A stretch of 64,000 nt of DNA, taken from assembly GCA_963843145.1 (NCBI GenBank), contig CAWJJC010000006.1, positions 91,998-155,997 on the forward strand. Reading direction: 5' to 3'. Positions 5,112-64,000 of the stretch are shown here, piece after piece. The DNA comes from an uncultured delta proteobacterium. GTDB lineage: Bacteria; Desulfobacterota; RBG-13-43-22. Position 1 is the first letter of the stretch. Each line of letters starts with the position of its first letter. The notes beneath the pieces are model-generated. The model saw nothing but the letters and a program-made list of their open reading frames with translations. It searched no databases and was not told where the DNA came from. The position numbers and the translations under genes are program-made.

Positions 5112-5134
5112 ACCATCAGGTTCTTCAACAGGTT

Positions 5135-5308
5135 GGCCCGGCGGTCGTCTTCTGGCTCCCCCTCCCCTCCAACGATCTTCCCGCCCGTCTGAAGACGGGC
5201 CGTGATCCATACCCGGCTGGAAAGGTTTCTTTGCCCGAATGGGAAAAGACAGGGTTACAGCGGCGGGACCGCCGCGGATTTTCACCGCGTTCCGTACCCG
5301 CCCGGCCT
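5135..5308 (-). promoter_or_regulatory. Cobalamin riboswitch
   Basis: Minus strand GGAACGCGGTGAAAATCCGCGGCGGTCCCGCCGCTGTAAC ... GGGAAG ... GAGCCAGAAGAC (B12 box), upstream of cobT. Confidence 0.9.
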
Positions 5309-5497
5309 ACATCTTTTTTTAAACTACCTTAAATAAGGACCCTCCTGATTGTCAAGTCAAAAAATCCCTAAGTCTGAACGGCAGAAATGAGAAACAGGAG
5401 AGAACCCGGGGAAAGGATTTCTTCGTTCCGAACCCGGGCCACCCGGTGCTTCACGCCGTATTCGCGGGAAAGGATTGAGGCCACCAGGTTGACTTCG

Positions 5498-7201: not shown

Positions 7202-7276
7202 TGGAGCCGGCGATGGGATTTGAACCCGCGACCTGCTGATTACGAATCAGCTGCTCTACCCCTGAGCTACGCCGGC
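7202..7276 (-). tRNA. tRNA-Thr(CGT)
   Basis: GCCGGCGTAGCTCAGGGGTAGAGCAGCTGATTCGTAATCAGCAGGTCGCGGGTTCAAATCCCATCGCCGGCTCCA; anticodon arm GCTGA-TTCGTAA-TCAGC; encoded CCA. Confidence 0.97.
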
Positions 7277-45826: not shown

Positions 45827-45918
45827 GACGCTACCTCCTGGTAAAGGATATATTAACAGTTTCATAATTGTATTTACACGAAGTGTTCTGTTTATCTCTC
45901 GCCCGCTTCGCTCGAATT

Positions 45919-46101
45919 CGCCGAGGGCACAGAGAAAGACGAATCTATTTTTTGAAAAATCGCTGAGACGCCGATTTTTCAAAACAGCTCACGCCTCCGG
46001 CGGGGTCTTATTCGCGGAGCGGGAGATTTTTTCTGATTGCCGGCCTCTCAGCGGCAATCAGAAATTAACCATTCTCTGTGATCTCTGTGTGCTCTGCGAG
46101 A
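45919..46101. repeat. MITE-like element bounded by CACAGAG/CTCTGTG repeats
   Basis: CGCCGAGGGCACAGAGAA ... TTCTCTGTGATCTCTGTGTGCTCTGCG, with internal hairpins. Confidence 0.45.
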
Positions 46102-46177
46102 GATCGTCTCTTGTCTCTGGTTGTGACTGGGCGGCGTTACGGAATCCTATCAATATTATTTTGAGACCGTTAATAAA

Positions 46178-46473
46178 TCACCGCTTCACGTAATCAAGTC
46201 TTTTCTTTGATTTGACCAATTGACCGTACTGCCTGATCCAGTTCATTTCATCCGGCTCCAGCGGCCCTTGTTTTATTGCCTCAAGATTCCGACTGAGCTG
46301 CTCCCGGTTCTGCGGCCCGGTCAACACAACATGTACCTTGGGATTCGTCAGAACGAACCGGTGGAATCAAGGCCATAGGAACCAGCGATACCCATACGAA
46401 AGACGGTTTTCCCCACGACCGGAAGCATTATGTGAGAAAACTCGGCAGGAGAAGTCGGTATTTGCTCTGTCAT
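46178..46473 (-). pseudogene. Internally deleted aldo/keto-reductase-like cassette remnant
   Basis: N-terminal VFRMGIAGSYG joined to C-terminal RFVLTNPKVHVVLTGP.N.EQL..NL. Confidence 0.55.
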
Positions 46474-46536
46474 CTGCCACACCCTGCTGTGAAATGGTAA
46501 CGGTGCTGTTTCTTTGGGGGTCAACGGGAGCACCCC

Positions 46537-46603
46537 GCCGAACGGTCCCGGAGCTATCCGGCCGCCTGCTTTTTGACGGTCCGAGTTGAGCGACTGGTTC
46601 GCC
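46537..46603 (-). other. Integron attC site of the HigBA-like cassette
   Basis: GGCGAAC CAGTCGCTCAACTCGGACCG...CGGCCGGATAGCTCCGGGACC GTTCGGC; overlaps the antitoxin stop. Confidence 0.7.
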
Positions 46604-46898
46604 CTTCATTTTGAGATTCCGTAACAAGACGCAACTCAAGACGACAACCAAGTGCGTGAGCGTACTTCTGCAATGTGGCCAATGATGGAGAGTGTTTTCC
46701 CCTGCCAGATTCAAGACGGGCTACCGCGGACTGAGTTGTGCCGATACGCTCAGCAACTTCAGCCTGAGTGACGCCTGCTGCGGCACGGGCCTTGAGAAAT
46801 TCGTCAAGAAATTGGAACTCCTCGTCCAGTCGATCGTATTCAGCTTTCACGTCTGTGCGCTCAAGGGCGCGGGTTTTAAGTTCTTTGTGAGTGAGCAT
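46554..46898 (-). CDS. HigA-like XRE HTH antitoxin
   Basis: AR..AGVTQAEVAERIGTTQSAVARLESG...PSLATL. Confidence 0.9.
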   Translation of the reverse strand: MLTHKELKTRALERTDVKAEYDRLDEEFQFLDEFLKARAAAGVTQAEVAERIGTTQSAVARLESGRGKHSPSLATLQKYAHALGCRLELRLVTESQNEGRTSRSTRTVKKQAAG

Positions 46899-47217
46899 TT
46901 TTGAACTCCTTCATCCTCCGCCGCGCTGTTTCAAGTTCTCTTAGCGGAGTCTTGTCTGTTTTCTTGACAATCTGGTGCAACATCACTATTTTTCGGCCAA
47001 CTAGAGTACAGTAAAACACTCGTGCGCTTCCCTCGGTAGCCTTCAATCGTAATTCAAATAGTCCGTCACCCATTGCGCGAGTGTGCGGCATGCCGAGATC
47101 AGGGCCGTAGACCTCCATCTTGTCAGCATATCTGAGGTAACGACCGAGAAAGCCTGCCGGCATTGCAAGGATCTCTTCTTGTACTGAATCGCTGTAATAG
47201 GTGATTGTCCAGTTCAT
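46876..47217 (-). CDS. RelE/HigB-like (Gp49-type) toxin
   Basis: GMPHTRAMGDGLFELR...ARVFYC...LH..VKKTDKTP; toxin-first order. Confidence 0.88.
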   Translation of the reverse strand: MNWTITYYSDSVQEEILAMPAGFLGRYLRYADKMEVYGPDLGMPHTRAMGDGLFELRLKATEGSARVFYCTLVGRKIVMLHQIVKKTDKTPLRELETARRRMKEFKNAHSQRT

Positions 47218-47542
47218 GGGTGCAGTATAGCGTATTTGCTATAAAAGATCTATATGAATATTTATGACTTTATTGTGGTCGAGTGCCCCGCGGATGAGCG
47301 GTGGACCCGGAGGACAAGCTCGCTTGGAGATCACCGGTTTATCCGGTGCATCATATTGTTGAAAATAAGTATCGTGTCCTCGGAGTTTCCTCTTCCTTGT
47401 CAAGAATAAAGATTTGACCCTTTCTCTCTTTCTCTTTGTGAGAAAACTTGGCAGGAGAAGTCGGTATTTGCTCTGTCATCTGCCACACCCTGCTGTGAAA
47501 TGGTAACGATGCTGTTTATTTGGGGGTCAACGGGAGCACCCC

Positions 47543-47598
47543 GCCGAACGATGAGTTGAGCCGAAGCGCTAGCGATCGGCTCAAGCGCCTGGTTGGCC
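47543..47598 (-). other. Integron attC site of the VapBC cassette
   Basis: GGCCAAC CAGGCGCTTGAGCCGATCGCTAGCGCTTCGGCTCAACTCATC GTTCGGC, 56 bp, palindromic. Confidence 0.82.
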
Positions 47599-48009
47599 AA
47601 TATATTCAGAATGAAGACCTGAATCTTTAGCCGCCATAAATTGCCTTTTGTCAGCGGTTACAAACAGGTCAGCCCCCCACTCAAGAGCACAGGCAACATG
47701 AAGGGAATCCAGTGCACGTAAGGCATTGTTCTCTAATAGCCTTACCGAACGTGAGACTACCGAAGGTGTGATTTGTAAAACAGTGGCATCTCGTACATCA
47801 TCCATCAACTGTCTTTTTACAGCCCGATAGTCGACGATAGTTAAAATGTGTTCTCTCAGCCGGCGGTTGAGACCGGAAATGATTTCAGGTACCAAAATAA
47901 CAGAAAAAGCTAACTCCGAAGCACCCTCCAAATAATGATCCAGTCTTTCGCTGCCAATTTCCTGCACATATCTCTTGGCAAATGACGATGAATCAACTGC
48001 CAGCTTCAT
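47581..48009 (-). CDS. vapC: VapC PIN-domain toxin
   Basis: DSSSFAKRY..E, LRALDSLHVACA, FVTAD. Confidence 0.9.
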   Translation of the reverse strand: MKLAVDSSSFAKRYVQEIGSERLDHYLEGASELAFSVILVPEIISGLNRRLREHILTIVDYRAVKRQLMDDVRDATVLQITPSVVSRSVRLLENNALRALDSLHVACALEWGADLFVTADKRQFMAAKDSGLHSEYIGQPGA

Positions 48010-48239
48010 GAAGTCAGCTCACGTTCTTCTAATATAGCAGAAGACAGATCGCTTCCTTTGATACGTAAACGGATTCCTGATTCCTTCCAGGCCGGCGGCC
48101 TTGGTACGTTGTCGGAAAATGGGATTATTTCAGCTACCGGCTTCCCACGCCTGAGAAGAACAAGTGTTTCCCCATGCTCCACCTCAGTGATAAAATCCGA
48201 AGCCCTTTTTCGGAAATCAGTAAAAGCAATACTTTTCAT
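48006..48239 (-). CDS. Phd/YefM-family antitoxin
   Basis: FR..AS..I..VE.GE.....RRGKPVAEI.P; ATGA overlap with vapC. Confidence 0.88.
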   Translation of the reverse strand: MKSIAFTDFRKRASDFITEVEHGETLVLLRRGKPVAEIIPFSDNVPRPPAWKESGIRLRIKGSDLSSAILEERELTS

Positions 48240-48347
48240 TTATGCCGCCTCATAAAGTGTACATCCAACTGTACATTTTAGGTAATATTTTGTCAAGATT
48301 CATTTTTCAAGGCGAAGGCGGCCTCGACTCGTGGCCAGCGTAATTGA

Positions 48348-48560
48348 GGGTCGGACCCAATGCCGTTAACTTAAGGGTATTTCCCCTGCCAACAGCGTCA
48401 CCCCGGCGAAAGCCGGGGTCCAGAAAACCTGAAAAATCTGGATTCCGGCCATTCGACTAAGCTCATGGCCCTGAGTAAGCCGAAGGGCTTTCGCCGGAAT
48501 GACGGCAACGACTTAATTTTTGGACTAAATTAGTTAAGTTAACGGCATTGGGTCCGACCC
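48348..48560. mobile_element. 213-bp MITE-like element with perfect 27-bp terminal inverted repeats and nested REPs
   Basis: GGGTCGGACCCAATGCCGTTAACTTAA ... TTAAGTTAACGGCATTGGGTCCGACCC; solo ends at 49097-49117 and 55453-55480. Confidence 0.75.
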
Positions 48561-48691
48561 CGAATTTTACCCAAAAACGATGCGGCCATGGTAGCGGATT
48601 CTATTCGATCCGACTGGTCGTGCAATTTTCCCCTCTCTATTATTTCTTCCTCGAAATGAGTCTCGATTCTTTTACCCCCCCCGTCCCATTA

Positions 48692-49081
48692 TTAAAACCG
48701 GGGGGAGCGGTCTCCTCGCAAGTAACGCATCAGGTCGAAGATATCGAGCAACAGAGACACTGTATCCATAACCATCAAGGTTAAAATCCAGCTTTGAAAA
48801 AGCTTGCCATCATGAATGTTCTCCAGTCTGAAACCCAGCCATATGAGCATAGGGATCCATACAAAATGGCCTATGCCCACGAGCCGGACATAACCCAGTT
48901 TGGCATGCAGGACCGTCATAATCGTAGCTGCCAGGAGCCCGGTTCCCAGTACCACCCAGGCCTCAGTCCTCGGCAGAAAGAGGATGGAAGACAGATTGAT
49001 CAATGGCAGACCAGCCATCCAGGGCCACCAGATCATGGGCATTTTGAACATATTTTTGAGAAATTCGACTAAGGCTTTCAT
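48692..49081 (-). CDS. Hypothetical 4-TM membrane protein
   Basis: 129-aa hydrophobic ORF, RLVGIGH..WIP motif. Confidence 0.6.
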   Translation of the reverse strand: MKALVEFLKNMFKMPMIWWPWMAGLPLINLSSILFLPRTEAWVVLGTGLLAATIMTVLHAKLGYVRLVGIGHFVWIPMLIWLGFRLENIHDGKLFQSWILTLMVMDTVSLLLDIFDLMRYLRGDRSPRF

Positions 49082-49129
49082 AATATTGGCTTAATTGGGG
49101 TCGGACCCAATGCCGTTCGTTGTTAGCCT

Positions 49130-51684
49130 CTATTGGGTCTGCTTCGTGCCTTGGTACGCTTCAGCCGGCTCATTGACGAAAGTCGCTTGGTAATCGGCAC
49201 GGCTCAAAACGGTATCGTACAATCCGATGTCCTCACTTTCGTGCTTGTTGATCCCGGTGTAGCTCAGGCTGGCATCCTCGTAGCGCTTGAACTTGTAAAC
49301 TGCGTCGTTCATCAGGGCGCTGTTGAAGACTCCCAGGCTGACCAGCAACTCGAAGTCCTTCACGTTCAGGCCCGTGACCTTTTTGAACAGGCCGGGTTCC
49401 AGTTGCCTAATCACATCCTTCAGCGTCCGCTCGCGGTAGTCGGTCAGGTACATAAAGATGGGAACCCGCGTGGCGAACTTGATGAGCTTCTCCTGAATCT
49501 CCTTGCGCTTGCTCTTGAACTCCTTTTCCTCCTCGGAAAGCTCCCCCTTCTCTTTCGCGGACAGTTCCTTGTCGTTCGCCTCCTTGCGAGCCTTCTTCAC
49601 GGCTTCCGACTTGTTGATGATTGTCTCGATGTCCTGATTCAGATTGCGAAAACCCTCGATGCTCATGAGGGCTTCCATCGCCTTCTTGTTGTTCATTAAG
49701 CGGCGCAAGGTGTCGTTGTCAACATTCACCAGCAAGGCACTTTCCCAGCGCCGCGCCAGTAGGGTTGCCGTCGTGCCGCTCATGGCCATGTCGAGGATCC
49801 CGGCGGCGTCAATTTGCTTCATGGAACTGCCGTCGTAAGCCAGAACCGGCAGGAAGCTGATGAACTCTTCCACCTTCTTTTCCGGGGTCGCCTCGTTGAC
49901 GTTCAACCGGCAACTGTAGTCGGCAATCTGTCGCAACGCTCGGTCGGGGGCGAAGTCGAAAACGTAGCACTCTTCCTTGATGATCTGTTCTTCGTTCGGG
50001 GAAGCGCCGTCGGGGTTGCGCACTGTCCAAGGCGATTGCACTCGGAAGGCCGCCTGAAAATACGTTTCCGGGCTGGAAGAGTTGCGCAGCATGAGAATCC
50101 CCGTCCACGGCTTCACCGTCACTCCCGTTGTCAGCTTCCCGCAAGACAGGGTGATGGTCTTGGTGGTGAGGGGATCGTCCATAGCCTCCTGGACCGGAGG
50201 CAGGGCCGCCACGCCGATTCCGGCGGCGCTACCCGCTGCCACGATGACCTTGTAGTCGTGGTAGAAGCGGTTCTGTTTCTTCGCCAGCAGGTTTCGCATG
50301 GCGTGACAGGCCGCCACGCTAGGGAGGAACCAGAAGGAATGCGAAAGCACGCCCAGCAGTCGCGCATCCGAAAATGGCATCGGCGGCTTCTGCGCACCGA
50401 GTTTCAGGTTGTCAACGCTGGTCGGCATAAACGCGCCACGGATCAGGTCCAGCCATTTCTGGACCTCATCCTTGTATTTGAACTTCGCCTGGTCGCCGAG
50501 GCCTTCGGCCGAAAAGAAAACGTTCAAGTCGAACTCGTTGAACTCCCCTTGCATGGCGATTTCCCGGATCGCGTCCGGCAGTTGGTAGGTCAGCAGCACC
50601 ATCCGGGGCAACGCGGCGTAGGGGTTGCCGGTCCCCTTCCAGTCTCGTTTGGCACGCTGTTCGTCGGAATAGGTCCAGTTGAAGATTTGCTCCTCGATGA
50701 ACTCGCCGGAAGCAATGGCTCGGAACGGTGTGCCGGACAGGTAAAGATAACCGTCCGTAGTGATTGGCATAATGTCTTCGTCGAAGTCTTCGATGCCTTC
50801 TCCCACAGCGAACTTGCGTTCCTTCTCATCTTCCGACTCAAAAAGTTCCTTCGCGTTCTCCCGCCATGCGCCGTAATGGTACTCGTCCAGAATCACGCAA
50901 TCCCAGTTTGTCGAATGGACCCATTCATTCTTGGTCTTGATGCCGCCGGTGCTGGGGTTCCGGCCCAAATAGTCCTGAAACGAACCAAAGCAGACGAACG
51001 GCCGTTTCTTGTCCGCCTGTTCGTAAGTCAGACCGCCGGGTTTGATGAATTGCCAGCCCTTGAAGTCCACGTGACACTTCAAGTCCTCTTCCCAAGCGCT
51101 TTGTACTGCCGGTTTGAAGGTCAGAACCAGCACCTTCCGCCAGCCCATCTTCTTCGCCAACTGATAGGCGGCAAACGTCTTCCCGAAACGCATCTTGGCG
51201 TTCCAAAGGAAATGCGGCGGCTTATTCCGGTTGCCCCGCTCCTTTCGCCAACTGGCGAAGTAGGCCGCCGTCATCTCGACCGCCGCTTCCTGTTCGGGGC
51301 GCATCTTGAAATCCAGCGACCGGTTCTCTTCATTCAATTGGCCGGTCCGCACGGCGATGATGGCCCCCTTGACCTGGGCAACCTTGCAACGGAACCACTC
51401 GCCTTCCGGGTTCTTAACGCCGTTGATCCGCAGCATCCGGTGAACGTCGTGGTCGGTGAACACCGTTCCGTCATTGCGCATGGCGGATTCTTCAAGACGA
51501 ATCCGGAACGGGCGGCTTGCCAGGTGCCTTCGTCGGGATACTGTTGCGTCGACGACGGCTCCTGTGCAGTCCACGTTGTGTACCCGACCTTGAGCAGACC
51601 CGCATATTGCGGGTTCGTATCCTCGTAGGCGTAAATCGTGGGCCGTGATTCCGGGCGCGGAGGGAAGAAATCCTTACTCATCAT
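49130..51684 (-). CDS. Restriction-type SF2 helicase with N-terminal GIY-YIG-like domain (indels near 51510-51575)
   Basis: IYAY...LKVGYT, GEWF, NAKMRFGKT, DEYH, YLSGTP, YFQAAFRVQ. Confidence 0.82.
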
Positions 51685-52531
51685 CCGGCCCCTTAAGTTT
51701 CTTCCTCGACGCGGCTGGCGGCAGAAAGTTTTCGCCGGTCACCACGTTTTTGCCTGTTTTCTGCTCTAATTCCCTGCGCGCTTTTTTCGCGATTCCGCCG
51801 CCTTTCTTTCCTGCTTCGGCATTTTCGTCCATGCCCGTTGCCTCGACGCTCTCGGCGATCTGCCGGGTGGACAATTCCGCCAGCGCGGTAAAGATCAACT
51901 CCGCCTCGCTCATGTGGTCGCGCAGGTTCTGAGTCTTGAGCCCCTTGATCTCCTTATGCTTTTTGACCGAAACCCCGGTCCATTCCTGATGGATGATATT
52001 GGTAAGAATGGCGTATTCCTCTTCGCCTTTGATCTCGTGATCCTTCCAGTAATCGGTGAGTTTGTTCCGGGTCTCCTGCCCCATCATCCGCTGTTGAATC
52101 CATTTTTCGCTCCGGCCGTGCTGTTGCCAGTATTCGCGGGCCCGATCCAGCGATCTGGCCGGATCGCTCATATCCTGAATGCGCTCATAACCAACCTTGG
52201 CCAGCCAGAGTTTGATCGGCTCAGCCCTGGGGCTGGGAACCGACTGGATAATCCGCAGAAGTGTTTCCGGATCAGCCACATCGGTAAGACGCATCTTGCC
52301 GTCGCCGGCTGCCATTTTCAACTGGTGACAATTTGTCACCGATTGACTTCCCTCCTTTTTCAGCCGTTCCTTGAGTTTGTTCCAGTACTTCCGCGCCGTT
52401 TGATAATCAGGTTGTTGAATCAAAGCCGCGACGATATCCACCACCGAGAAATACCAGATTTCGGACTTCTCATCATAAACCCGGCGAATCTTGAAATTCT
52501 CAAAAACTGCCAGCGCCTGATCACTCGTCAC
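51674..52531 (-). CDS. Bro-N domain DNA-binding protein
   Basis: WYFSVVDIV..L, YWNKLKERL..EG, IIQSVPSP.AEP.KLWLA, NLRDHM. Confidence 0.85.
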   Translation of the reverse strand: MTSDQALAVFENFKIRRVYDEKSEIWYFSVVDIVAALIQQPDYQTARKYWNKLKERLKKEGSQSVTNCHQLKMAAGDGKMRLTDVADPETLLRIIQSVPSPRAEPIKLWLAKVGYERIQDMSDPARSLDRAREYWQQHGRSEKWIQQRMMGQETRNKLTDYWKDHEIKGEEEYAILTNIIHQEWTGVSVKKHKEIKGLKTQNLRDHMSEAELIFTALAELSTRQIAESVEATGMDENAEAGKKGGGIAKKARRELEQKTGKNVVTGENFLPPAASRKKLKGPDDE

Positions 52532-52640
52532 TGTTCACCTCCGATGCTTGACCGCAATCCCAAACATCGACAATCTGTCGACAGTTCCCCGCCCGAAAAC
52601 CCGGACGAAATCATATGTACCCATCTGCGGAATCATTCGC

Positions 52641-54220
52641 TTACTCATTTTTCGCCTCCCCGTCTGCGTCATCCGCGCTGGCAGGCATCGGGCGGACTAT
52701 CGACTCGATGAAGGTGATCTCACTCGCGGAGAGCGCATACTTGGCATAGAGGTCTTTGTCTGTCCACTGTCGGGTCCATTTCTGGATTGGCACGAAAGAG
52801 TACACCTTTCGCGTGACGTGTTGGGATGGCTTGTGCAGGAGAATCAAGAGACGAGTCAGCCGACAGGAAAGGTATGATAAAACGCTTTCAGCCTGACGCT
52901 TTGAGTCGAACGGGCCAATGCACAGATACGTTTCCGAAGAGATGCTCCCCGGCTCCCCGACGAATGGCGTGCTGATGATTCTGTGAGGGTAGGTATCTCT
53001 GTTGCCGGTCCCCGGCGCAGCATAGCTTGCGAAAAGCTTCCACTTGTCGATGAGTTCAGTGCCAATCGTGATCGAGTTTCTCGGTGTATATCCTGTACCA
53101 CCATTTTGATAAACCATCACGTCACCGGCACGTTTAGCTGCCTTGCCCTTAAACGTTGTCTCTAACCCGAACGGCTTCCTGGAACTTACCAGTCGGTCGA
53201 AACGCTTAATGTCAGGTAGGGTCAGCGATTGCGACTTCCGACTCTCGACAGCTATGACCTTCTTTAGGATCGACAGCCCTTCGTTAAAGCGGATGAACAC
53301 GTCCACCCCCTCTTCGAGCAGTGGACGACTGACTGTCGAAACTGGCCAGTCCTTGAAATGGGTGGTGACTCGGCAGGGCCCCGGATTGTCCCTGTCCCAC
53401 AGGAAGTAACAAACTCCGCCCTTGAGGCCCACCCCTGGGAAGACGTCCGATGCGCGGAGATAGTCGTCAATTGAGCGCAAACGATTGTCGGTAAGCATCG
53501 ACTCTCTGAACTCATCCAGCCCCTTACCTCCTGCGAACCATCGCGAAGGAATGATCATGGTCAAGATATCGCGGCTTCAGTTTCTTCGCCTGTTCAACAA
53601 ACTGGTGGTAGATCGGCGATGCGCTTCTGCCGAAACCCCCATCGCTCAACTGGTACGGGCGGATTTCCTATGATCACGTCAAATTTCATGTTGAATATAT
53701 CCTCCGGCTTGTCGGTGTGAATAAAGGCGTAGGCGTGGCTTTCGAGTTCGCCGCCCCGTTCGTAGTTCTCCTTGTTGGCTCCGCAGTACACACAACGGCC
53801 ATTTTTCCAGGAGTGTTCCACGCGCCCGAAACGGATGTTGCCTTCCGGGCTGTCGAAGGCTTCGCAGACGGAATACTTGCCGTTGGCCGTCTTGGAGCAG
53901 TACACGGACCGGCGCGAAAGCAGCGAGGTCAATTCCGTGATGGCGAGTCCGTAAAGCTGGTTCTTGAAAATGTGGTTCATCCGCTTCTGGCGGTCACGGA
54001 TTTGCGCTTCCAGCCCCTTGTCCAGCCGCTTGGCGATTTCGCGCAGGAATACGCCCGACTTACAGCCGGGATCGAAAAACGTGGATTTCTTGTCGCTCCA
54101 GAGTTCTTCCGGCAGCAGGTCAAGAATCTGGTTCACCAGTTGCGGCGGGGTGAAGACTTCATCGCTGCTGAGGTTGGCGATACAGGAAAGCACGTCGGGG
54201 TTGTAGTTACTGCTGAACAT
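52641..54220 (-). CDS. Eco57I-type adenine DNA methyltransferase with target-recognition region (indels near 53580-53655)
   Basis: [26 protein letters not shown](Y), [12 protein letters not shown]. Confidence 0.85.
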
Positions 54221-54881
54221 GGGCGATCTCCATGAAGTGAACCGGGGGATATTCCTTCTCCGGCGTGGGAATGAACACGTCCTCGCCTAGATCGGAGAAG
54301 AGCGGCAGTTCCTTCATGCCTTCGTGGTCCAGCAATCCGTGAAAGGTGAAGTCCCGCCGTTTGAGCATGCTCCCGTTGACCGGCGACCATTCGGAAAAGA
54401 CGATGTAGCCGGGAGGATCGCCAACCGTCTTGAGGGTGAGTGCGTCGCCCCAGATGATGTTTCGGTCGAGAATGAACCGGACGGCCTCGCGGCATTTGTT
54501 CTTGGTGCGGTTCTTGAACAGCCGGGAATAATAATCGCAGTCGAACACGCCATAGAGCCGGTGCCGACACTGCCGGACATTGTCCTCCAGGATGTCAATG
54601 CCATAGATCGAGGAAATGGCAAGGACGGCGTAGCGCTCAAAATCCAGTTGCGACTTCCCGTACCGCTTCTCGACCACCGCCAGCTTCCGTTCCAGAATCG
54701 CGGCCAGGAAGTTCCCGTTGCCGCAAGCCGGTTCAAGGAAACGGGAGTCAATCCGCTCCGTTTCCTGCTTCACCAGGTCGAGCATAGCGTTCACCTCGCG
54801 CTTCCCGGTCAACACCTCGCCATGATCGGCCACTCGTTTTTTTGATATGATCTGTTTGTCCATTGGTTCTCTGTCTGTCAT
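54207..54881 (-). CDS. Short SAM-binding methyltransferase-like RM subunit
   Basis: [45 protein letters not shown]. Confidence 0.82.
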
Positions 54882-54890
54882 CTCCGAGTG

Positions 54891-55190
54891 CTAACGCGGC
54901 GTCGATCCGTGGCCCGCGGCCTGAAGGGCCGGGGCCGGGAAGAACTCGTGCCATAGGTGATACGGGGGATTGAATGCTTGGTAGACGACGCTGGCTCCGG
55001 TGGCCACCGTAGCCGCCTGAGTTGGGTCTGCGACGTCCGCCTTGGCCATCTCGACGTCGGCCGGCATCAAACCTGGACGCACTCCGCTTCGATTCACCGC
55101 GCGGACAGCGCGTTCTTGGCTCCGCAGTGCCCGCGCCGTCCAACACCCCACCGGGCCGGTTCCGAAGATCACGTGTAACTCCGCAGGCAT
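54891..55190 (-). pseudogene. NAD-dependent epimerase N-terminal fragment ending in an attC right half
   Basis: HVIFGTGPVG Rossmann motif, VRAVNRSG; ends at GTTAGCA (54889-54895). Confidence 0.65.
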
Positions 55191-55531
55191 TAGTCCTTCC
55201 TCTCAGGTGTGGGTTCCAGGCTAATTCTTTTAATTGGGTCCGATCCCGCATTAAAAGTCTTCATAAAATCCCGTGCCCGGCACCGCGTGTCTATAAAACC
55301 GGGCCGTCAGTTCACTCGGGATAAACAGGAATATCGCCGAAAAAGTCGGGGTTTGGAAAAACGTCGTCGGGGACGCCTCGCAAATACCCCGTTCCCCAGC
55401 CCTGGCCCTTGGCTCCGAAACCATTAAAGATAGCAAAAACAGGCTCTTTCTGTTAAGTTAACGGCGTTGGGTCCGACCCCGCTTTCCCACTCACATGCTA
55501 CTGTTAGGCAGCTTCATTCCGCCGTACTCAA

Positions 55532-57638
55532 TCACGGCATGAGCACCACCAAGTCGAGATAGGCGGTTCGTAGCTTGGCCACGAACTGGTTTCTCTCCTG
55601 GGCCTTGAGGTGCCGTGACTGCGCCGCCGTCTTCTTGTCGTAGGGGTGCGACACCGGAAGTTGGTTGCGGCGCGTGTTCATGTCCCGAAAGGAGTTGCCG
55701 ATGGTCGGACAGTTCTTCGAGAACGGTCCGTTCGTGTCCAGCGTGACCCCGAAGTCTACAAGCTGCCCCTTCTTGTCGATGATCGTGCAAGCCGCCGCGT
55801 GGCCCGTCGCCGCGAGGTGCCGCTACAGGGCCAGGAATACGGTCTGGTTGAACGAGTTCTGGCAGGCAAGCCAGAAAGAGAGGCCCCCCGGCGAACGCGG
55901 CTTCGGCCTGCTTCAGAAGACCCAGCGCGTGCACGTACTCGGCGCCAAGCAAGTGATGCCAGGACTTGCCGCGGGGCACCGCGTATCGCGCTGTGGAGAA
56001 TCTCGGCGATGGGATCGACCTTCGGGCCCGGGCGCGAGATGACGCCCAGCTCCCGCAGCGTGTTGGCGACCTGCGAGGGCAGCTGGCGATGGTCAGCCCG
56101 AAGGTCGATGGCGTCAAGCCACGCTCGTGCAGCGCTGAGCAGACCGACAACCCTGGCTCCGGCGTCGTTCGCCCAAGGAAGGTCTCAACGACTTCTCCCT
56201 TTGCGAACGCGGTCAGGAAGCACCGGGGCCAGCAGCGACTGGAGCAGCGGTGCCTGGTACTTCAGCCAACCTGCTGTGTCGAGTGACCGGAGGCCCCTCC
56301 GAGACGCAGAGGAAGTGGCAGGCGCCCCACCGCTCGACGAAGTTCTCCTGGGATCTCTGCTTCGCGATGTTGATGGCCCGGTCGTCGTGAGCGGTGTCGG
56401 ATCGCCGGCCGTCATGGACCGTGACTCCCGGACTGATACTTGGCCAGAACGTGCCATGCCTCGCCTCGAACGTATGGGTATGGATTCTGCTGCACCAGGC
56501 TGAGGCAGAGCCGCTCGATCGGCTTCCGGTAGTCGAAGCGGCCAAGGTACGCGAAGAACGCGTCGGCATGCTCCGGGTGGTGTGGAATCAGCCGTAGCAC
56601 CAGCTTCAGAAGGTCGCTGTCGGGCTCTGCTCGATAGAGGACGAACCGGAGCCGCGTTTTGTCTGTGACTCGGTATGGCTTCCCGCCAATCGCCGAGCGA
56701 AACGCCCGCCGAGCCTGCTTCCTGTCGATCGTCTCGGTGCCGCCCGCCCCGTGCTGCGGGTCCGAAATGCTGGGGAGCATCCCCATTGCCTCTTGGACAC
56801 TCTGGGCGCGCTTGATGGCGAACTTACCCGTCTGCGGGATGAGGCCTCGCTCGCGGCAGTGGCGTTCGATCTCGATCAGGTCCGCTCGAACCTCATTCTC
56901 GGTGGCGCCGAAGAGCCGCACGTCGTCGACGTACCGCGTGTACCCTCGCCGCTTCTGGAGCGCGAGGTCGATGGGGAGCAAGAAGCACTCGGCGAGAAAA
57001 TCGGACGCCAAGGGTCCTTGCGGCAGGCCGTGGCCGTGCCCCGAAACTGCTCGGTCGGAGCTCCAGGTCCGCAAACACTTCCCGATCCAATCGAGGTCAG
57101 CGTTGGTTATACGCGGGTAGATGGTCCGCAGCAGGAGTTCGTGCGAGATCGTGTCGTAGAAGGCTGCCAGGTCGAAATCGCCGACCCATCGCATGCCCGC
57201 TGGGTAGTGCTTTCGGATACGCCCTTGGAAGGCCCTGTAAGTGTTCTGCCAGCGGCGGAAGAAGAAGATGCTGTCGGGCTTCTCCAAGGATGTTGCTGAA
57301 GACGACCTTGAACTGAAGCTGGGCGCGCGCTGCTGCTGCATTCGATTCGCGGCGAGATTTGCAAATGCCTGCAGAACGACCTGGTCCTCGATGCTCAGCA
57401 GCGCTAACGGGCGATGGAGGCCCGAAGCCTTCGGAACGTAGATTCGCTCCGGGATGACGGGCCTCAAAGGCGCCACCCAGCAGCCGTTGACGGAGGTCCC
57501 GCAAGTTGGCGTCGAGCGCGACCTCATAGGCGTAGTAGACGCGCGGTAGAGCCGCTTGTACTGGTAGTTGCCGCCAGTGGTAATCCGTCTCCACGCCAGC
57601 TCAAGGTTCTGTTTGCTTGCAAGCTGGCTGATCCTCAT
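55532..57638 (-). CDS. Defence-type (UG/Abi-like) reverse transcriptase with helical region and C-terminal HEPN-like motif; about 700 aa, interrupted by indels and one TAG
   Basis: PK.SGL.RP, DLAAFYDTI.H, GLPQGPLAS, YTRYVDD; reconstructed C-terminus contains RRNQLPVSHPY (55646-55669) and stops at TGA 55532-55534. Confidence 0.8.
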
Positions 57639-57690
57639 CCGATCGTCACATTCGGTTGTTCTTAGACGTACACTGCGCAGGCCTTCGGGT

Positions 57691-57746
57691 GCCCAATCGC
57701 CGCGAATCAGCCGAACGGCTTTTTGTGTGACTTGAATCAGCCTTGT
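57691..57746 (-). other. attC site split by a group II intron (remaining left end at 58092-58097)
   Basis: Removing the intron gives TTCTAACAAGGCTGATTCAAGTCACACAAAAAGCCGTTCGGCTGATTCGCGGCGATTGGGC. Confidence 0.65.
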
Positions 57747-58091
57747 GTACGCTCGACACGGGCGTGATCTTATGGGGTGACCTTCGACCCTGCTCAGATC
57801 AAGGAAGTCCCCTATATGTAAATCCGTTACTGTCATAAGACAGGAACATAAATACTAGCCGAAAGCAAGGGCGATCTCGCGAGGGATCGTCCGTAGGAAG
57901 CTGGAGCGCAAAGCTATGAGCCAAGCCTGCCCCGGAGCTGATCCGGGGTACAGAAGCGGGTAAGTATCAATTGCCCGGCTACGGCTAGGTGGCCTCTGGG
58001 AACCGCCTAGTGCGGATGTCTTGAGCTTGTCGAAGGGGACCCGCATGCTAGGTGGTGGGGAGGGGGAGGGAAAAACTCTCCCTTACCCGAT
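57747..58091 (+). mobile_element. ORF-less group IIC(-attC) intron
   Basis: 5' GTACGCTCGACACGGGCG; DI-like GCAAGGG...GAAGCTGGAGCGCAAAG; DV GAACCGCCTAGTGCGG..CCGCATGCTAGGTGGT with CGC triad; DVI ending CTTACCCGAT; flanks TTGT and TAG. Confidence 0.85.
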
Positions 58092-58169
58092 TAGAAAAAA
58101 TTTGCGAAATAATAGCTTACTCCGTCTACCCTCAGAGCAATTTGTCAAAAGTGTAGACCTGACCCCGGT

Positions 58170-61100
58170 GTCCTCTGCTCCAATTCGTAACATACGAGGA
58201 AAAGTTTCACGCAGGAAGATACCGCCGACCGTGTCGCTCCCCGGCTCGCTTCAAGACGATACCAAGATTTATGCGCAGCGGCTTCCCAGCGCTCTCCAAC
58301 ATAGGCAGCAGTCGCTCGTTAACGAACGGCTCGGTTGCCGTCCGACCCAGCAGCAAGCCGTCGAATGCATTCCGTTTAAAATCAGAAAGGTCCCTCAAAA
58401 GGAATGCCACAGCGTCTTCGCTAAAGTCGTCAGTTGTAAGATCACTTCGGGCATTCAGAACCGTGAGTGCCAGGATTCCCCGATACTTTGAATCCGTTCT
58501 GTAAATTCTGCCAAAAACGCCTTCTGCGTCGCTTCTGCAAGCTTCATGGCAAAGAGTTTTGAGAGCCGGTCCCTAAACCACCATTGGGTTCTCACGGGAT
58601 CCTCGGCCTGCGAAAGCCAGTCCAGCCACCATGAGATATCACCGATGTCTAAAATGCCGATCTTGGGTTCCGCTGGCCCCATTGCCATTTTTTCTAAAAG
58701 GCACCAAGCAAGGTGAGCGTTGCGAAGTCTCAGCAGCCGCAGAAAAAGATCCTCGTGCCCAACCCAATTTAAATCCATCTGGGTGAAGATACTCCGGTTC
58801 AAGCTTCCGTTCCGTTGCGCTCATGGCCAAGAAACTCTCTAGTGCCCCAAAAACAGAATCTTCTGGCCGCCACGAAGAGTAAAAACAGAGCTGCCTGGCG
58901 AAGCCCCCTTGCGTCCGGGGCGTGTGTTTCCACCTCAGAGAAGCATATCTTGGACGCCCCTTGCAAAGAGTCTTAAGTGCATGCACCTCCCCAAGGTTCC
59001 TCTGCCATGTCACCAAGCAATTCTACCAGCCGCGAGACATGCTGCTCGTTGAAAGCATTCCAGGACAATTCGCGCTCCTCGCGACCGTGTTCGGCGATGA
59101 AGTAAATCGTGACGGCAGCTTCCTTGAAACCCGGAGCAATAATTCAGCGGCCGTTTCGAGTGCCTCCGTAGAATGCCTGTCTCGAATGCACTCCAAAACG
59201 ACCCGAGTCCGGGCTTTTATACAGCACTCGGCGTTCCCTTTTGGAAGAAGCGCCGCTGTAATTGCAGCAAGCTCTAACTCACCCATTGCCTCACTTATGC
59301 CGCACACGAAACCATGCGTGGCGGAGTCCGATTCATTGTCAGTCATTTCGTGCTCGATTGAATCGGCCATCTCGGCGATGCGAGTGAGGTCTTCCTTCAC
59401 AACGAATGGTCGTAAGGCCCTGCCAAGACCGCTACAGTAATTGTAATCTCCTCGTCTTTCGAGCAACGAGGCGAACATCTCGCTCTTCAATGCTAGCCCA
59501 TTGCAGTGCAGAAGTTTGGCCGCGGCACATCCGCCCACCATGTTCCCGCATTCCATTATGGCGCGAAGCTGCACTTCATGGGCCCCAGTCACGGGAACGT
59601 GCAGATCGAGAGCCAATTCAATCTGAAGGTCAAAGCCCTGCCGTTGCTCTATGCGAGCGGGGATTTCGGCGAGCAAACTTGCAACAACTACTTCACGATT
59701 GACTTCGAGATATTTCGCGGCCCGCAATGCGAGAGCAAAATCTGCGTTCATAACCGCCTCAAGGAATGGATTCGCTTCACTCTCGGGGAGAATGCTCAAA
59801 GTCAGGAGGATGGCTTGGTCCCATCGGTTCATAGTCAACTTCTCCTTGAGAATCGACGGGGTGGTTCGAAAACGGAGCGCCAGTTCATTCGCAGCCAAGA
59901 ACTCGGTCACTGATTGATGGAAAAAGGCAACTCGTTCGCCTGAGTATGGAAGAAGCACCGACTGGCTGACTAACCAACGCCCAAGCGTCTCGGGCGTGGG
60001 TTGCAGTAGTCCAAGCGCCTGCATCTCCTTGGTGAGCGATTGAAGGAGAGCCTGAACCGGCAATGCCTCTTCGCCTCTGCTGATTGCCTCGTATGCCAAC
60101 GGCGCCAAGACTTTGGCGAGGTTGAGGTGGCTACCAAAGCGTTCGGCGAATGCTGTCGATAGGTTGGAGAAAAAGGCGTGATAGAGGTTTCGTGGATCAG
60201 GCTGTTCCGGAAGTTTCACCCCTCCGCTAGTGACAAGTTGGAAATAGAATGGCTTTCTCAGCAGATCTCTGAGTTCATGCTTAAACGATCCGGAGAGTGT
60301 GATTCCCTTCTCTTTTAGTTGTTGCTCCAAAAAATCAGAATCAATCTCATCCAACCAGTAGCTGGGGAACCCGAACTTTGCTAGACCATCCTCGGTGCGA
60401 GAGCTGATGATTATCTCGACGGTTTGGTGATGCTTGACAAAAGCTGTAATATCAATCTCTTGCACGCCTCGTTCCCACTGGTCACGCGGCATTTCGTTGA
60501 ATGAATCTAAGAACACCCTCACTCGGAATCGGTTCGCCAACTCTTGAAGTGTAATTCCTGGTGGGAGTGTCATTTCCAGCATAGCACTCAGGTCACCTTT
60601 GTAGAGCTTCATGTCGGCATACATGGGAATGACGAGATCTTCGAGGACTGCCGGCTGTGCCAAACAAGAGTCATGGAGGCTCTGCGCCAACTGGGACACA
60701 GCTTTCTTGAGGCCATACGTTTTTCCGGCGCCAGGCAGACCAAGTAAGACGGCGCGTTGTGGACCATCTTTTAAAAATTCGTTGCATTCCGCGTGGTCCC
60801 AGCGGTCATGCGATGGATTTCCTGTGCGAGCATACCTCCAACCCTTGCTTGAATGGACTCGTAGTGGGAGTTCGGGGTTTGCTGATTCGAAACGCATTAA
60901 CCCACTTGCGTAGCGCAGGACGGAAAGGATCAATTCAGTGGCAACGTGGGGAATCGCGCCAGCAGCGTCCGCAGGGCTCAGTGGTTGGAGGCATTCGTCC
61001 AGCAACTCAAGGAGCTTGCCGTGGTCAGTTTTTCCGGTAGGCAATTCGCTTGTAGCATAACCGACCAGATGAATCCCGTAGTTCTTTCGCCAGTAATTGA

Positions 61101-61812
61101 CTTCGCCGCTACCCACGTCTGCCATGATCGCGTAGTGGTCTCGCGTTCCCCCTTTCCATGTGTTCGCGAGAACATCCCGGAGCAAAAGGAAGTCCGGATC
61201 ACGTAAACCAAAACCAAAATAAACCACACGCCGCGTTGCAAGCATGGTTTTGAGCGACTCCAGGGTATGTCTCCATTCCCCACCTTCTAGAAGCTTACGA
61301 TACTGCTCTCGGGTTAGAACAATGCTCTCGACGTCGCCCACATCACCGTGAGGCTTGAAGATGAAATCTACAGCTCTAGCCTGAATGATGTCGGCTTCCT
61401 CGAAGGGTTGCTTGTTTGTCACGACTCGAAACGATCGCCCGTGCTTCCATTTTCGCAGGCTTTCCTCAAGAAGTTGATCGTAGTTTGTCGTGATGAAGCA
61501 GCGCGGCCCAAGCGACACGATCTTGCGGTGGATTTCGTGAGGCGCAGCCGTTCCGAATTTGCAGGCGCTTCTGATGAAACCGCCAATTTCCCAAGGGTGT
61601 AAGTTGATCAAATCCGTAGCTCGCCGCTTGCAGGAGGTCTTGTTTAATTTCCTTTCTGACAAGTTCAGCATCTCGCCCAAAAAGTTGAGGAGGTCGGCTA
61701 ATTGATTGAGGAGTTCTGTCCAAGACGGGAGTTCTGACCAACAAGAAGTTCCGGAGCCGATGAACAGAACGGTGTCTTCCTGTTTGAGAGCTTGTTTGAG
61801 TTGTTCGATCAT
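58170..61812 (-). CDS. SIR2-NACHT (STAND) NLR-like defence protein; C-terminus fragmented or truncated
   Basis: VLFIGSG.S....PSW, ITTNYD.LLE, FKPHGD, YFGFGLRDP (SIR2); LLGLPGAGKT, VFLDSFNE, KPFY, FFHQSVTEFLAA (NACHT); downstream fragments 58639-59016, 58455-58802, 58207-58410. Confidence 0.82.
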
Positions 61813-61844
61813 GGATGTTGGCCTCCCTGGAAAGTTACGCGGCT

Positions 61845-62184
61845 CTAGTTGGTACCAAAGGAGCCTTTGATGGGGGCGTCGTCGAGCCGCAGGGGAATGA
61901 AGCGGCGCTCCTTGTTCAGCGGGTCGCGAAAGCGGAACGTGCCGGACTCCAACTGCGCCCAGTCCGAGCCGAACGCATTGGCCGACATGCAGAGCACCAG
62001 CACGCGCGAGTGCTCCAGCCCTTCCTCGATCTTTGCCGGGATGCTGTCGCCGGGCTTGAGCACCCATTCATCGAACCACACCTTCAGCCCGTCCTTCCGC
62101 AACCGCTCCGCCAGCGGGCGCACCACCGCCTTGTCCTTCGCGCTGTGGCTCAGGAAGACGTCGTAGGGGAAGTCCTCATTTACG
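61845..62184 (-). CDS. TIR domain (TIR_2-like); start codon uncertain
   Basis: YDVFLSHSAKDK, VWFDEW.L.PGDSI, S..AFGSDWAQLE (catalytic Glu position); GGAGGAG RBS precedes GTA at 62182-62184. Confidence 0.85.
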
Positions 62185-62201
62185 TGGCGGATCTCCTCCG
62201 C

Positions 62202-62240
62202 GTCTAACAATATATTGAATAGTTTCTTTTCAAAATCACG
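62202..62240 (-). other. Putative integron attI site
   Basis: AT-rich GAAACTATTCAATATATT followed by GTTAGAC, at an abrupt AT-to-GC switch just before the first cassette RBS. Confidence 0.55.
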
Positions 62241-62591
62241 AAGTTCTTGGATTCTCCGTATCAAATATTAAATTGTGTTTACATATCTATTTGATACTAT
62301 TTATTTAATTAACTTGTTCAATATTACATTCATACATTTAGTAGGATAACTGTTCAGTCCCGAAGCGGTCTGTTCCTGTTCCCATTCTGACGAGGTTTGA
62401 CGCCATTCCTGAAAAACGAGCCGTTGGGACGATTGGTAGATTGGAGCGGCCCTGGAGGCCGAGGGTTGGAAACGAACGCCGGCATTCGTAACTCCCATGT
62501 GCGCCGCTAAAACGGCGGCTTTATTGATATTGAAGGGATCGGATTACAAACAGGGTAATAAATTTTGATTGATTTTAGTCCAAAAAATGCC

Positions 62592-62690
62592 GTTGTCAAG
62601 GATTTTGCAGTAAATCCGGTTGGGTATATCGATTGCGGGGCGGGCAGGTCGACCAGCGGCAGGGCCTCGACCCGGTATAGAATGGATAGT
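62592..62690. repeat. About 100-bp degenerate direct repeat of 63327-63425 (3' end of the ATPase gene)
   Basis: GTTGTCAAGGATTTTGCAGTAAATCC...GGGCAGGTCGAC.AGCGGCAGGGCCTCGACCCGGT in both copies. Confidence 0.85.
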
Positions 62691-62970
62691 TTGTATGGCG
62701 GACCTTAAAAATTATAGGGAAGCCCTTCTTTTTAGGCGGTCCGTCCGTTCGACCGCTTCGGCCTGTCGATTTTTGTGCGATATGGATTAGAGACCGCAGC
62801 GCTTCATTAACCGCTTCCTCGGTCGGGAACACCTTGGCCACATCGGGGCTGAGCAGCACAAGGTTTGTGCCTTCGCGGTACGATTCCAAGTATTTGCCAC
62901 GTACTCCTGTCCCAAGGTCTTCCCGCTTATACTCCGAGCGGAGTTCGTTTAATTCCTTAGCGTTCTTCAT
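62596..62970 (-). CDS. BrnA-like antitoxin (C-terminus reads through into the duplicated segment)
   Basis: LRSEY....GVRGKY...Y..GTNLVLL.PDVAKVFPT.EAVNEALRSL. Confidence 0.75.
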   Translation of the reverse strand: MKNAKELNELRSEYKREDLGTGVRGKYLESYREGTNLVLLSPDVAKVFPTEEAVNEALRSLIHIAQKSTGRSGRTDGPPKKKGFPIIFKVRHTNYPFYTGSRPCRWSTCPPRNRYTQPDLLQNP

Positions 62971-63229
62971 AAATCACCTTTTCATGACGTTCCATTAGGC
63001 GCGCACTAATAATTCTGGTTCGGGTCCTACGTTTTGTGTGGGAGACCACAATAAGACGCCTTTGGAGAGATTCCCTAAAAGTCAGTTTCCGTTCTTCTTC
63101 TTTCGAATGGTCCGGGTCTGGAAACGAAATAGCCAGAGGATCGCCAAAAACTGTTGCAGCTTCTTGAAACGTGACTCCATGTTTTTTGAGGTTTTTCTCA
63201 GTCTTCTTGGGATCCCACTCAAATCTCAT
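62957..63229 (-). CDS. brnT: BrnT-family toxin
   Basis: MRFEWDPKK...NLKKHGVTF.EA..VF.DP, RIISAR. Confidence 0.9.
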   Translation of the reverse strand: MRFEWDPKKTEKNLKKHGVTFQEAATVFGDPLAISFPDPDHSKEEERKLTFRESLQRRLIVVSHTKRRTRTRIISARLMERHEKVIYEER

Positions 63230-63330
63230 AGTAATAACTAAAATAACAGAACTGGCAGATTTCGTAGTAATTCAGAAGGTTAAAATTAGAGTAAGAATTT
63301 CGTTCGATTTTATTTCAAAAACCGGGGTTG

Positions 63331-64000
63331 TCAAGGATTTTGCAGTAAATCCATTTGGGTATTCGATTGCAGGCCGGGCAGGTCGACGAGCGGCAGGGCC
63401 TCGACCCGGTCTAGAAGAGGATAGCGTTCCGTGCCCGGATAGACCACGTATAATTTTTTGACTGCACGTCTTCCAGAGCCACGTGTATCGACCTGGTCAG
63501 GGTCGGGGCGTCCGTGCATTTGAATTCGAATCCAACCCTGCGTCCCTTCCGCAGGAGCAGCAGGTCCAACTCCGCTCCTCGCTGGGTGCTCCAGAAATAG
63601 GCATCCCGCTCGCCCCACATCTGGAGGACCTGTTCCAGGGCAAACCCCTCCCAGGAGGCCCCGTAGCGGGGATGGGACGCAGTTCTTTCAGAGAACCAAT
63701 GCCCAGCAGGTAATGAAGGAGCCCACTGTCCCGGACGTAAATCTTGGGGGCCTTGACCTGCCTTTTTTTCAGGTTCTCAAACCAGGGCGGCAAGACTCGC
63801 AGGATATAAGCCCCCTGAAGTATATCGAGGTAATGACGGGTCGTTTTCGGGGTTACGGCTAGGGATCGGGCCAGCTCGGAGCCCGTCCCAAATCTGCCCA
63901 TGATAATGAGCGTTCATTGTCCAGAACCGGCGCAGGGCTTCAGCGGGGATGCGCAGACCCAGTTGAGGAATATCCCGTTCCAGGAAGGTGGCGGCACGCA
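63331..64000 (-). CDS. AAA+ ATPase with DUF4143 domain, 3' part (indels; 5' end outside the window)
   Basis: [44 protein letters not shown]. Confidence 0.82.

Follow-up and report, generated by a model that had tools for sequence, protein, structure and literature searches.

Clusters of attC sites lacking an integron-integrase (CALINs) were delimited in a 2016 survey as two or more attC sites lying within 4 kb, with no integrase and with decayed, heterogeneous attC sites (PMC4889954). The same survey, which clustered attC sites at 4 kb, puts the biggest cassettes known at ~2 kb, although supplementary size tables of the papers cited here may hold larger ones; it searched for the C-terminal domain of IntI and reported pseudogenes near 15 of 279 CALINs. 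Arrays enriched in toxin-antitoxin (TA) and defence genes are known from the sedentary chromosomal integrons called anti-phage biobanks (Darracq et al., 10.1101/2024.07.02.601686) and from the bacteriophage-resistance cassettes (BRiCs) of mobile integrons (Kieffer et al., 10.1101/2024.07.02.601719), and restriction-modification (RM) systems are enriched in integron cassettes (PMC10661359). A route through attG to isolated cassettes has been described (10.1101/2022.09.11.507474). Here we analyse a stretch of 64,000 nucleotides (the window) from an uncultured delta proteobacterium of the Desulfobacterota (GenBank GCA_963843145.1, contig CAWJJC010000006.1, positions 91,998 to 155,997), in which the region from 46.2 to 62.2 kb is a decayed, defence-rich chromosomal integron of the CALIN kind. 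That general kind is already known; new here are its oversized multi-gene cassettes and a family-wide pattern of orphan attI sites.

The locus departs from the described systems in several ways. Unlike the clusters of the 2016 survey, it retains attI and a 23-codon 5' relic of intI, which would go uncounted in a search aimed at the C-terminal domain, and two of its units exceed both the 4-kb clustering distance and the largest cassettes mentioned there (PMC4889954). In the RefSeq survey of Darracq et al., cassette defence systems are streamlined and never have more than two components, whereas the window holds a cassette-bounded three-gene RM operon with a passenger gene (5.8 kb) and a SIR2-NACHT gene of about 1200 aa that is probably cassette-bounded too (10.1101/2024.07.02.601686). 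In contrast to the biobank integrons, the array is short and dead, and its action against phage is a prediction. Repeated lineage-specific deletion or truncation of intI has likewise frozen arrays with RM and Abi cassettes in Xanthomonas, at a single ancestral ilvD locus (10.1101/2025.06.18.660453); the family studied here has multiple platforms in a genome, set at unrelated loci and of two attI/IntI types.

The window forms the right end of contig C6 in assembly G000 (5.35 Mb; 32 contigs; completeness 97.9%, contamination 6.9%); other G, C and L numbers denote genomes, contigs and loci of our set. The features of the array are collected in Table 1.

Table 1. Features of the array, listed from attI to the distal end (positions in the window; a dot marks features without strand).
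Feature	Position	Strand	Evidence or remark
intI 5' relic, ~23 alignable codons, start codon lost	62351..62433	+	fused to unrelated conserved leader element
attI platform: L-box, 5-nt spacer, R-box GTTAGAC; crossover G/TT at 62208/62207	62202..62350	-	
TIR-domain gene stub, cut at ~61860	61845..62190	-	Pfam TIR_2; homologues extend past break
SIR2-NACHT-helical repeat gene, ~1200 aa, 6 frameshifts	58207..61812	-	Pfam SIR2_2; full-length alignment
Short palindrome between SIR2 gene and its attC	58150..58170	.	seen in sequence
attC 1, in two pieces (57691-57746 + 58092-58097), stem partly decayed	57691..58097	-	
Group IIC-attC intron derivative without open reading frame, 345 nt	57747..58091	+	junctions and sister copies
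UG19-large reverse transcriptase cassette, ~2.2 kb	55532..57638	-	PADLOC RT_UG19, 388 bits
attC of the reverse transcriptase cassette, left half only (R'' GCCTAAC), cut off	55493..55509	-	
Multi-copy gene-less element bounded by palindromic repeats	55233..55481	.	copies on C27, C28, C11, C21
NAD(P)-binding enzyme stub fused to attC right end	54891..55190	-	Pfam NAD_binding_10, E 0.005; sequence
DrdVI-type RM cassette, 5774 nt, R' GTTAGCA to R'' GGCTAAC	49122..54895	-	
Palindromic repeat truncating the attC of the RM cassette	49097..49117	.	identical break in G003
129-aa protein, no cassette ends left	48692..49081	-	
Miniature inverted-repeat element	48348..48562	.	
VapBC-type TA pair, Phd/YefM-PIN	47581..48239	-	Pfam
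attC, intact	47543..47598	-	35.8 bits, E 1.5e-7; fold z -2.4
Aldo/keto-reductase-like cassette copy 1, first 114 nt	47437..47549	-	97% repeat of 46431-46544
attC, degenerate, R' missing	47312..47364	-	7.8 bits, not significant; 3/200 shuffles reach its alignment score
HigBA-type TA pair, RelE-like (Gp49)-HTH	46554..47217	-	Pfam
attC, whole but bulged	46537..46603	-	23.8 bits, E 2.4e-4
Aldo/keto-reductase-like cassette copy 2, internally deleted; distal end of array	46178..46543	-	Pfam Aldo_ket_red, E 8e-4

We consider it highly probable that the region was a sedentary chromosomal integron whose integrase has been deleted to about 23 codons and whose large defence modules are now fixed as an island. 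At its proximal end, a 28-mer of attI ending at 62203 recurs with at most 3 mismatches in 14 of 20 genomes of the family and in none of 20 others, and homology among the attI copies ends at the G/TT crossover. In the relatives G011 and G002 this 28-mer precedes a divergent intI by about 150 nt, as in a complete integron, and the 229 nt from 62205 to 62433 are 77% and 72% identical, respectively, to their attI-intI junctions. The peptide of the relic aligns to the N-terminus of the G002 IntI with a score of 65, the maximum among 2000 shuffles being 40. What an earlier sequence-only reading of the window had called attI-like is a genuine, family-specific attI, and the intI relic which that reading had weakly inferred at about 62360-62430 proved real. 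Beside attI only this relic stands in the place of an intact intI, and the absence of the gene, noted earlier, extends to the whole assembly: a hidden Markov model (TIGR02249, curated cut-off), tblastn and a DNA profile of the family returned no intact intI; what they gave were Xer-like recombinases and, on several contigs, short pieces of intI. TIGR02249 matches at E 1e-30 or better occur in 10 of the 20 family genomes.

Two observations accompany this end of the array. A scan for a cassette promoter gave a single sigma-70-like site (62599-62572; 1.2 expected by chance), and the -35-like hexamer of the relatives is altered in the window. The conserved leader that replaces intI (62434-62640) carries a sigma-70-like site. 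Further copies occur on C10, C12 and C20, and two of these are followed by genes resembling, by eye, TIR or type I restriction genes; the leader may be a promoter source for the array. Separately, positions 1-1780 of contig C15 are a 95.7% identical version of window 62210-64000 that stops inside attI, with the differences clustered at the intI relic, and represent a strain haplotype or a duplication.

An IntI missing from the assembly, or present in a co-occurring strain, could still serve the array partly in trans, with attI taking up new cassettes to this day, which is compatible with the integron reading and which we judge unlikely. The attI core shows full conservation amid drifting surroundings, the C15 flank ends exactly inside attI, the reverse transcriptase (RT) is nearly identical to a copy in a gammaproteobacterial metagenome-assembled genome (MAG), and the intact intI genes of relatives are often found at contig ends; yet an assembly of this completeness yields intI fragments only, by three methods, and most attC sites on which such an enzyme would act have been destroyed.

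Along the array, attC sites were scored with a covariance model trained only on the arrays of relatives (17 seed sites, 35 after one search); a hand-written heuristic, which found one window site among many palindromic false positives, served only to seed it. Where the sequence-only reading had allowed that such a model might score none of its sites, two score significantly. By this home-built model, as distinct from IntegronFinder, the pair at 47543-47598 and 46537-46603 fits the definition of a CALIN, lying within 4 kb on one strand without an integrase. All remaining sites across 45.5-64 kb score below 10 bits, among them a degenerate attC proposed near 47317-47364. Every core site that the earlier reading listed was correctly placed. 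In cassette 1, the RT unit and the RM unit alike, R' matches R'' at 6 of 7 positions (for the R' of the RT, only when one extra base is ignored), and the R'' cores lie 4-30 nt past the stop codons, as in cassettes. All genes with a Pfam or PADLOC match from 46.2 to 62.2 kb are indeed on the minus strand, but so are the flanking genes at 43.3-46 kb and 62.6-64 kb, and strand alone is therefore not diagnostic. Because most attC sites are broken, the array is largely frozen.

From attI outwards the cargo comprises a TIR stub, SIR2-NACHT, the UG19-large RT, an NAD-enzyme stub and the RM operon with its Bro-N passenger, followed by the 129-aa protein (no match in Pfam, PADLOC or NCBIfam), the VapBC-type pair, an aldo/keto reductase (AKR) stub, the HigBA-type pair and a second AKR stub. 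By summed lengths, defence and TA genes fill about 13.1 of 16.0 kb (82%); the "nearly all" first proposed had passed over the NAD-enzyme stub, Bro-N, the 129-aa protein and the two AKR stubs. This share is atypical for the family: in its other arrays, 10 of 57 hand-picked open reading frames match PADLOC at 1e-8, five counted as specific defence or toxin genes and the rest as generic methyltransferase, ATPase or protease. PD-T7-4-like cassettes were seen in three arrays. Expression of the array is presumed, and its anti-phage activity is predicted from profile matches. The earlier reading, an array acting as a defence island, was overstated for a locus where most sites are broken and several cargo genes are stubs or frameshifted. 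None of the public sequencing runs contains the locus (share of words at most 0.07), and no RNA run with the locus is listed.

The largest unit encodes a small methyltransferase, an Eco57I methyltransferase, a Bro-N protein (PDC-S13) and a T5orf172 nuclease-helicase; apart from Bro-N, this is the DrdVI-type layout, and the operon is predicted to methylate and restrict DNA. The three-gene layout is shared with pDrdVI (NZ_CP031164; PMC6430315), whose helicase is 55.9% identical by way of the G157 homologue; the window copy differs in sitting between integron core sites. Nineteen homologous loci were collected, 12 from 400 genomes of the phylum and 7 from 400 of another class. Both ends of the RM unit are in view in 10 loci (window and pDrdVI included), and four of these, the window, G223, G157 and G155, from four families in all, share the complementary pair GTTAGC(C/A) and GG(C/T)TAAC among unrelated neighbours. 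The units measure 5774 nt in the window and 4810, 4729 and 7046 nt in the others (4.7 kb in G157). Right behind the helicase, the model predicts an attC in G502 (50.7 bits), G157 (20.3), G223 (18.6) and, weakly, G054 (12.9); G155 and G003 have half-sites only. The window unit keeps the core pair at 6 of 7 positions and has lost the attC stem, which is present in G157, G223 and G502. No IntI was found beside the RM cassettes of G157, G223, G054 and G155. The literature searched, with most subscription papers outside its scope, contains no report of a DrdVI-type RM system or of UG19 as an integron cassette.

Cassette 1, about 4.1 kb, consists of the TIR stub and the SIR2-NACHT gene; its R' (GTTAGAC) and its R'' (TTCTAAC) can pair at 6 of 7 positions. 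Among 43 loci with SIR2-NACHT homologues, 3 have an adjacent attC, in support of cassette status. The TIR domain named earlier is present, in a truncated gene. The NACHT assignment draws on look-alikes at 0.96; a single-sequence structure model of a homologue was unusable (pLDDT 38).

In the RT cassette, the PADLOC profile of UG19, a class 1 UG/Abi RT, covers the whole length of the protein, helical repeats included, and far outscores the next one (142 bits). The window copy is 96.8% identical over 2114 nt to the RT of L090, a locus labelled Gammaproteobacteria, where it lies in an attC array, and the RT of L091 (Nitrospinota) has an attC on both sides; these two closest homologues are the 2 of 17 loci with an adjacent attC, and the start of their attC matches the half-site left in the window. 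A structure model of an intact homologue matches AbiA/AbiK/DRT4 over residues 2-524 in a whole-protein fold search. The RT assignment stands, while the HEPN domain first attached to it is only a lead: R653, R654 and H661 are invariant at the C-terminus (R-x6-H), which we take to be a HEPN motif, and HEPN look-alikes reach 0.82. For the C-terminus of UG19, the paper that treats these RTs states a "very distant homology" to HEPN; its RT_UG19 class fits the window RT, packaged here between integron core sites, and the word integron is absent from its main text (PMC9226505).

Frameshifts are frequent in the cargo: relative to intact homologues, the RT has 11 and one stop, and the large methyltransferase and the helicase have two each. 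Homopolymer errors were considered as the source of the RT indels and found unsupported: stretches of at least 3 identical bases account for 1 of 17. Among control genes outside C6, 21 of 99 are frameshifted (0.54 per kb), and among genes of C6 outside the array none of four. In RT, SIR2, large methyltransferase and helicase the frameshifts may reflect either sequencing error or pseudogenes.

The intron-split attC of the sequence-only reading was confirmed as split, with the difference that 57691-58097 is the outer span of the attC and the intron occupies the interior only. With the intron removed, attC 1 aligns to an attC of a relative with a score of 63 (maximum 28 in 200 shuffles), and its fold is weak (-3.2 kcal/mol). 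Insertion is at TTGT/T on the attC bottom strand, antisense to the cassettes. Known group IIC-attC introns have the same consensus site, on the R'' bottom strand, and the same orientation (PMC7923331); the window element, probably a derivative of this class, differs from them in its length of 345 nt, the lack of an intron-encoded protein and an extra palindromic insert near its 3' end. It has neither an encoded RT/maturase nor the full ribozyme fold. The Rfam family group-II-D1D4-3 reaches 25.6 bits, below its cut-off of 32, and at gathering level Rfam gives no intron match in the window.

Palindromic repeats are present at several of the junctions. The family that includes 48348-48562, 49097-49117 and 55233-55481 has 26 copies in the assembly, six of them in attC or attI regions where 0.6 would be expected (regions chosen after the fact), four in this array. 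The palindrome at 58150-58170 is presumably of the repetitive extragenic palindrome (REP)-like class, and the C27 copy of the family adjoins the start of what we take, from a motif, to be a Y1-transposase-like gene.

The size of the units is what sets the array apart. Cassette 1 and the RM operon appear to have matching cassette ends at 2-3 times the usual cassette size, which is notable, and IntI would have inserted units of 4-6 kb. By comparison, the 41 distances between attI and attC or between successive attC sites that were taken from 19 arrays of relatives do not exceed 3.3 kb, and their median is 0.94 kb (L050, L064, L065 and L194 omitted, L065 for an inserted element). Separately, a first cassette of 2.1 kb in G010 (L059:16691-18777) carries a type II methyltransferase and a small partner gene. 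Several points weigh against large cassettes, and against the integron as a whole. Only 2 of about 7 sites are significant by the model; the half-sites at 55503, 54889 and 49122 have no significant model score and taken singly do no better than shuffles against the attC library. No attC stands beside most homologues (RT 15 of 17, SIR2-NACHT 40 of 43, RM most of the 19), which suggests that large modules usually travel by other routes, and in G157 and G223 the attC sites flanking the RM units score low (18-20 bits). Identity among the SIR2 homologues does not go beyond 35-62%, and none was seen with both ends as a cassette. The TIR stub is fused to the SIR2 gene, so that cassette 1 may be two units joined by deletion. 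Finally, the assembly itself is rich in indels and partly contaminated.

These points would suit a generic defence island within a small dead integron, in which only the TA and AKR units were true cassettes and the big modules arrived by illegitimate recombination, palindromic mini-elements or cassette-fusing deletions. The palindromic repeats at several junctions, the truncation of the TIR and NAD-enzyme genes by events other than attC recombination and the many homologues without attC agree with such an origin, as does a capture assay in V. cholerae that did not recover a cassette whose attC sites lay 4 kb from each other (10.64898/2026.03.17.712381). The generic island leaves unaccounted for, however, that one complementary pair of 7-mers bounds the RM operon in four families, among differing flanks, that the nearest RT homologues are textbook cassettes and that the R'' cores keep their cassette-like distance to stop codons. 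Modules homologous to those of the window are bounded by attC or core sites elsewhere, and we regard the generic island as improbable. That the array is in part a chimera assembled from strain-variable pieces in a long-read MAG is more improbable still: the indel-rich cargo, the overlap of the C6 end with the C15 start and the other head flank that adjoins this RM tail in G003 could suggest it, but G003 independently has the junction of RM and broken attC, the AKR stub and the left-flank genes, and in contigs from two other runs the RM start has intron sequence beside it.

The decayed integron also has a visible history. G003, of the same genus, shares the RM tail at 91% identity, the identical repeat-broken attC, the last attC followed by the AKR stub of copy 2, and the left-flank genes, which indicates that the distal array is older than the divergence of the two species and that its decay had begun by then. 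In G003 (C12, L163) a transposase-like gene heads the RM tail, together with the flank found before the C27 attI in G000, through either rearrangement or misassembly. In 2 of 4 runs (two studies) there are contigs that connect 54875 with 57817 and so lack 2.9 kb, including the RT; the junction has 3 nt of microhomology and is not a precise cassette excision.

Across the family, most attI sites appear to have lost intI. We examined 33 attI sites of the window's type (type A), 28 in relatives and 5 in G000 including the C15 end, with two G012 sites pooled under one label and one site having only 149 nt upstream. One of the 33 has intI, running to the contig end (G011), a count biased against intact integrons because their contigs tend to end at attI; the others retain about 25 to 440 nt of platform and at most about 100 codons of intI. 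Of 27 loci searched, many of which had also served for training, 22 have an attC on the right strand after attI. In G000 alone there are two or three platforms of a second type besides the C15 copy and four distinct ones of type A. At one orthologous locus the loss itself is seen: G002 has intI and attI, and C12 of G000 passes from the same gene directly to attI, about 1.6 kb shorter. No sequence shared beyond the intI stop codon, as a clue to platform movement, was found. Other remnants were noted. At C15:69921-69978 a G/T junction links the 3' tail of an intI with an attC-like sequence, as if a cassette had entered intI, and at an orthologous second-type integron G003 (C53, L048) keeps the middle and C-terminal parts of intI and G000 (C16:5834-6230) the N-terminus and attI. 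The gene beside the C12 attI (G000:C12:92600-93510; also L046) has what we take to be motifs of the class D beta-lactamase family.

Mechanistically, an active IntI would have inserted circular cassettes at attI by attC x attI recombination, probably in the order AKR (twice, around HigBA), VapBC, the RM operon, the NAD-binding enzyme, the UG19 RT and, last, TIR/SIR2-NACHT. Later, the group IIC-attC intron, palindromic mini-elements and deletions would have destroyed most attC sites, and the integrase would have been deleted to its ~23 codons. The loss of attC would in turn have fixed the large defence modules as an island beyond further shuffling.

Beside the array, a multi-copy element of ~330 nt (45851-46179) forms its distal border, and on the other side a BrnT TA pair (62561-63416) is flanked by direct repeats of ~125 nt, which take in the 3' end of the neighbouring DUF4143 ATPase gene. 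Elsewhere in the window lie a cobalamin riboswitch and a tRNA gene, at 5123-5320 and 7205-7276.

Taken globally, the locus is of limited practical weight because it is a frozen remnant in an uncultured organism. For its family, we tentatively propose, at somewhat less than even confidence, that integrons with long integrases (~390-520 aa) routinely mobilise entire defence operons with several genes (4-7 kb), each as one cassette, and that their platforms at many loci repeatedly lose intI, leaving relics too short for profile searches, so that many CALINs would arise by integrase deletion. If this is true, a class of 4-7 kb cassettes has been under-counted by 4-kb clustering and by surveys dominated by Vibrio. 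The three-gene RM operon, found with one pair of core sites in four families, offers a concrete substrate for testing the limit of cassette size. Family-specific attI sequences reveal intI relics that standard searches miss, which bears on the origin of CALINs, and the orthologous pair of G002 and G000 shows the deletion of intI directly.

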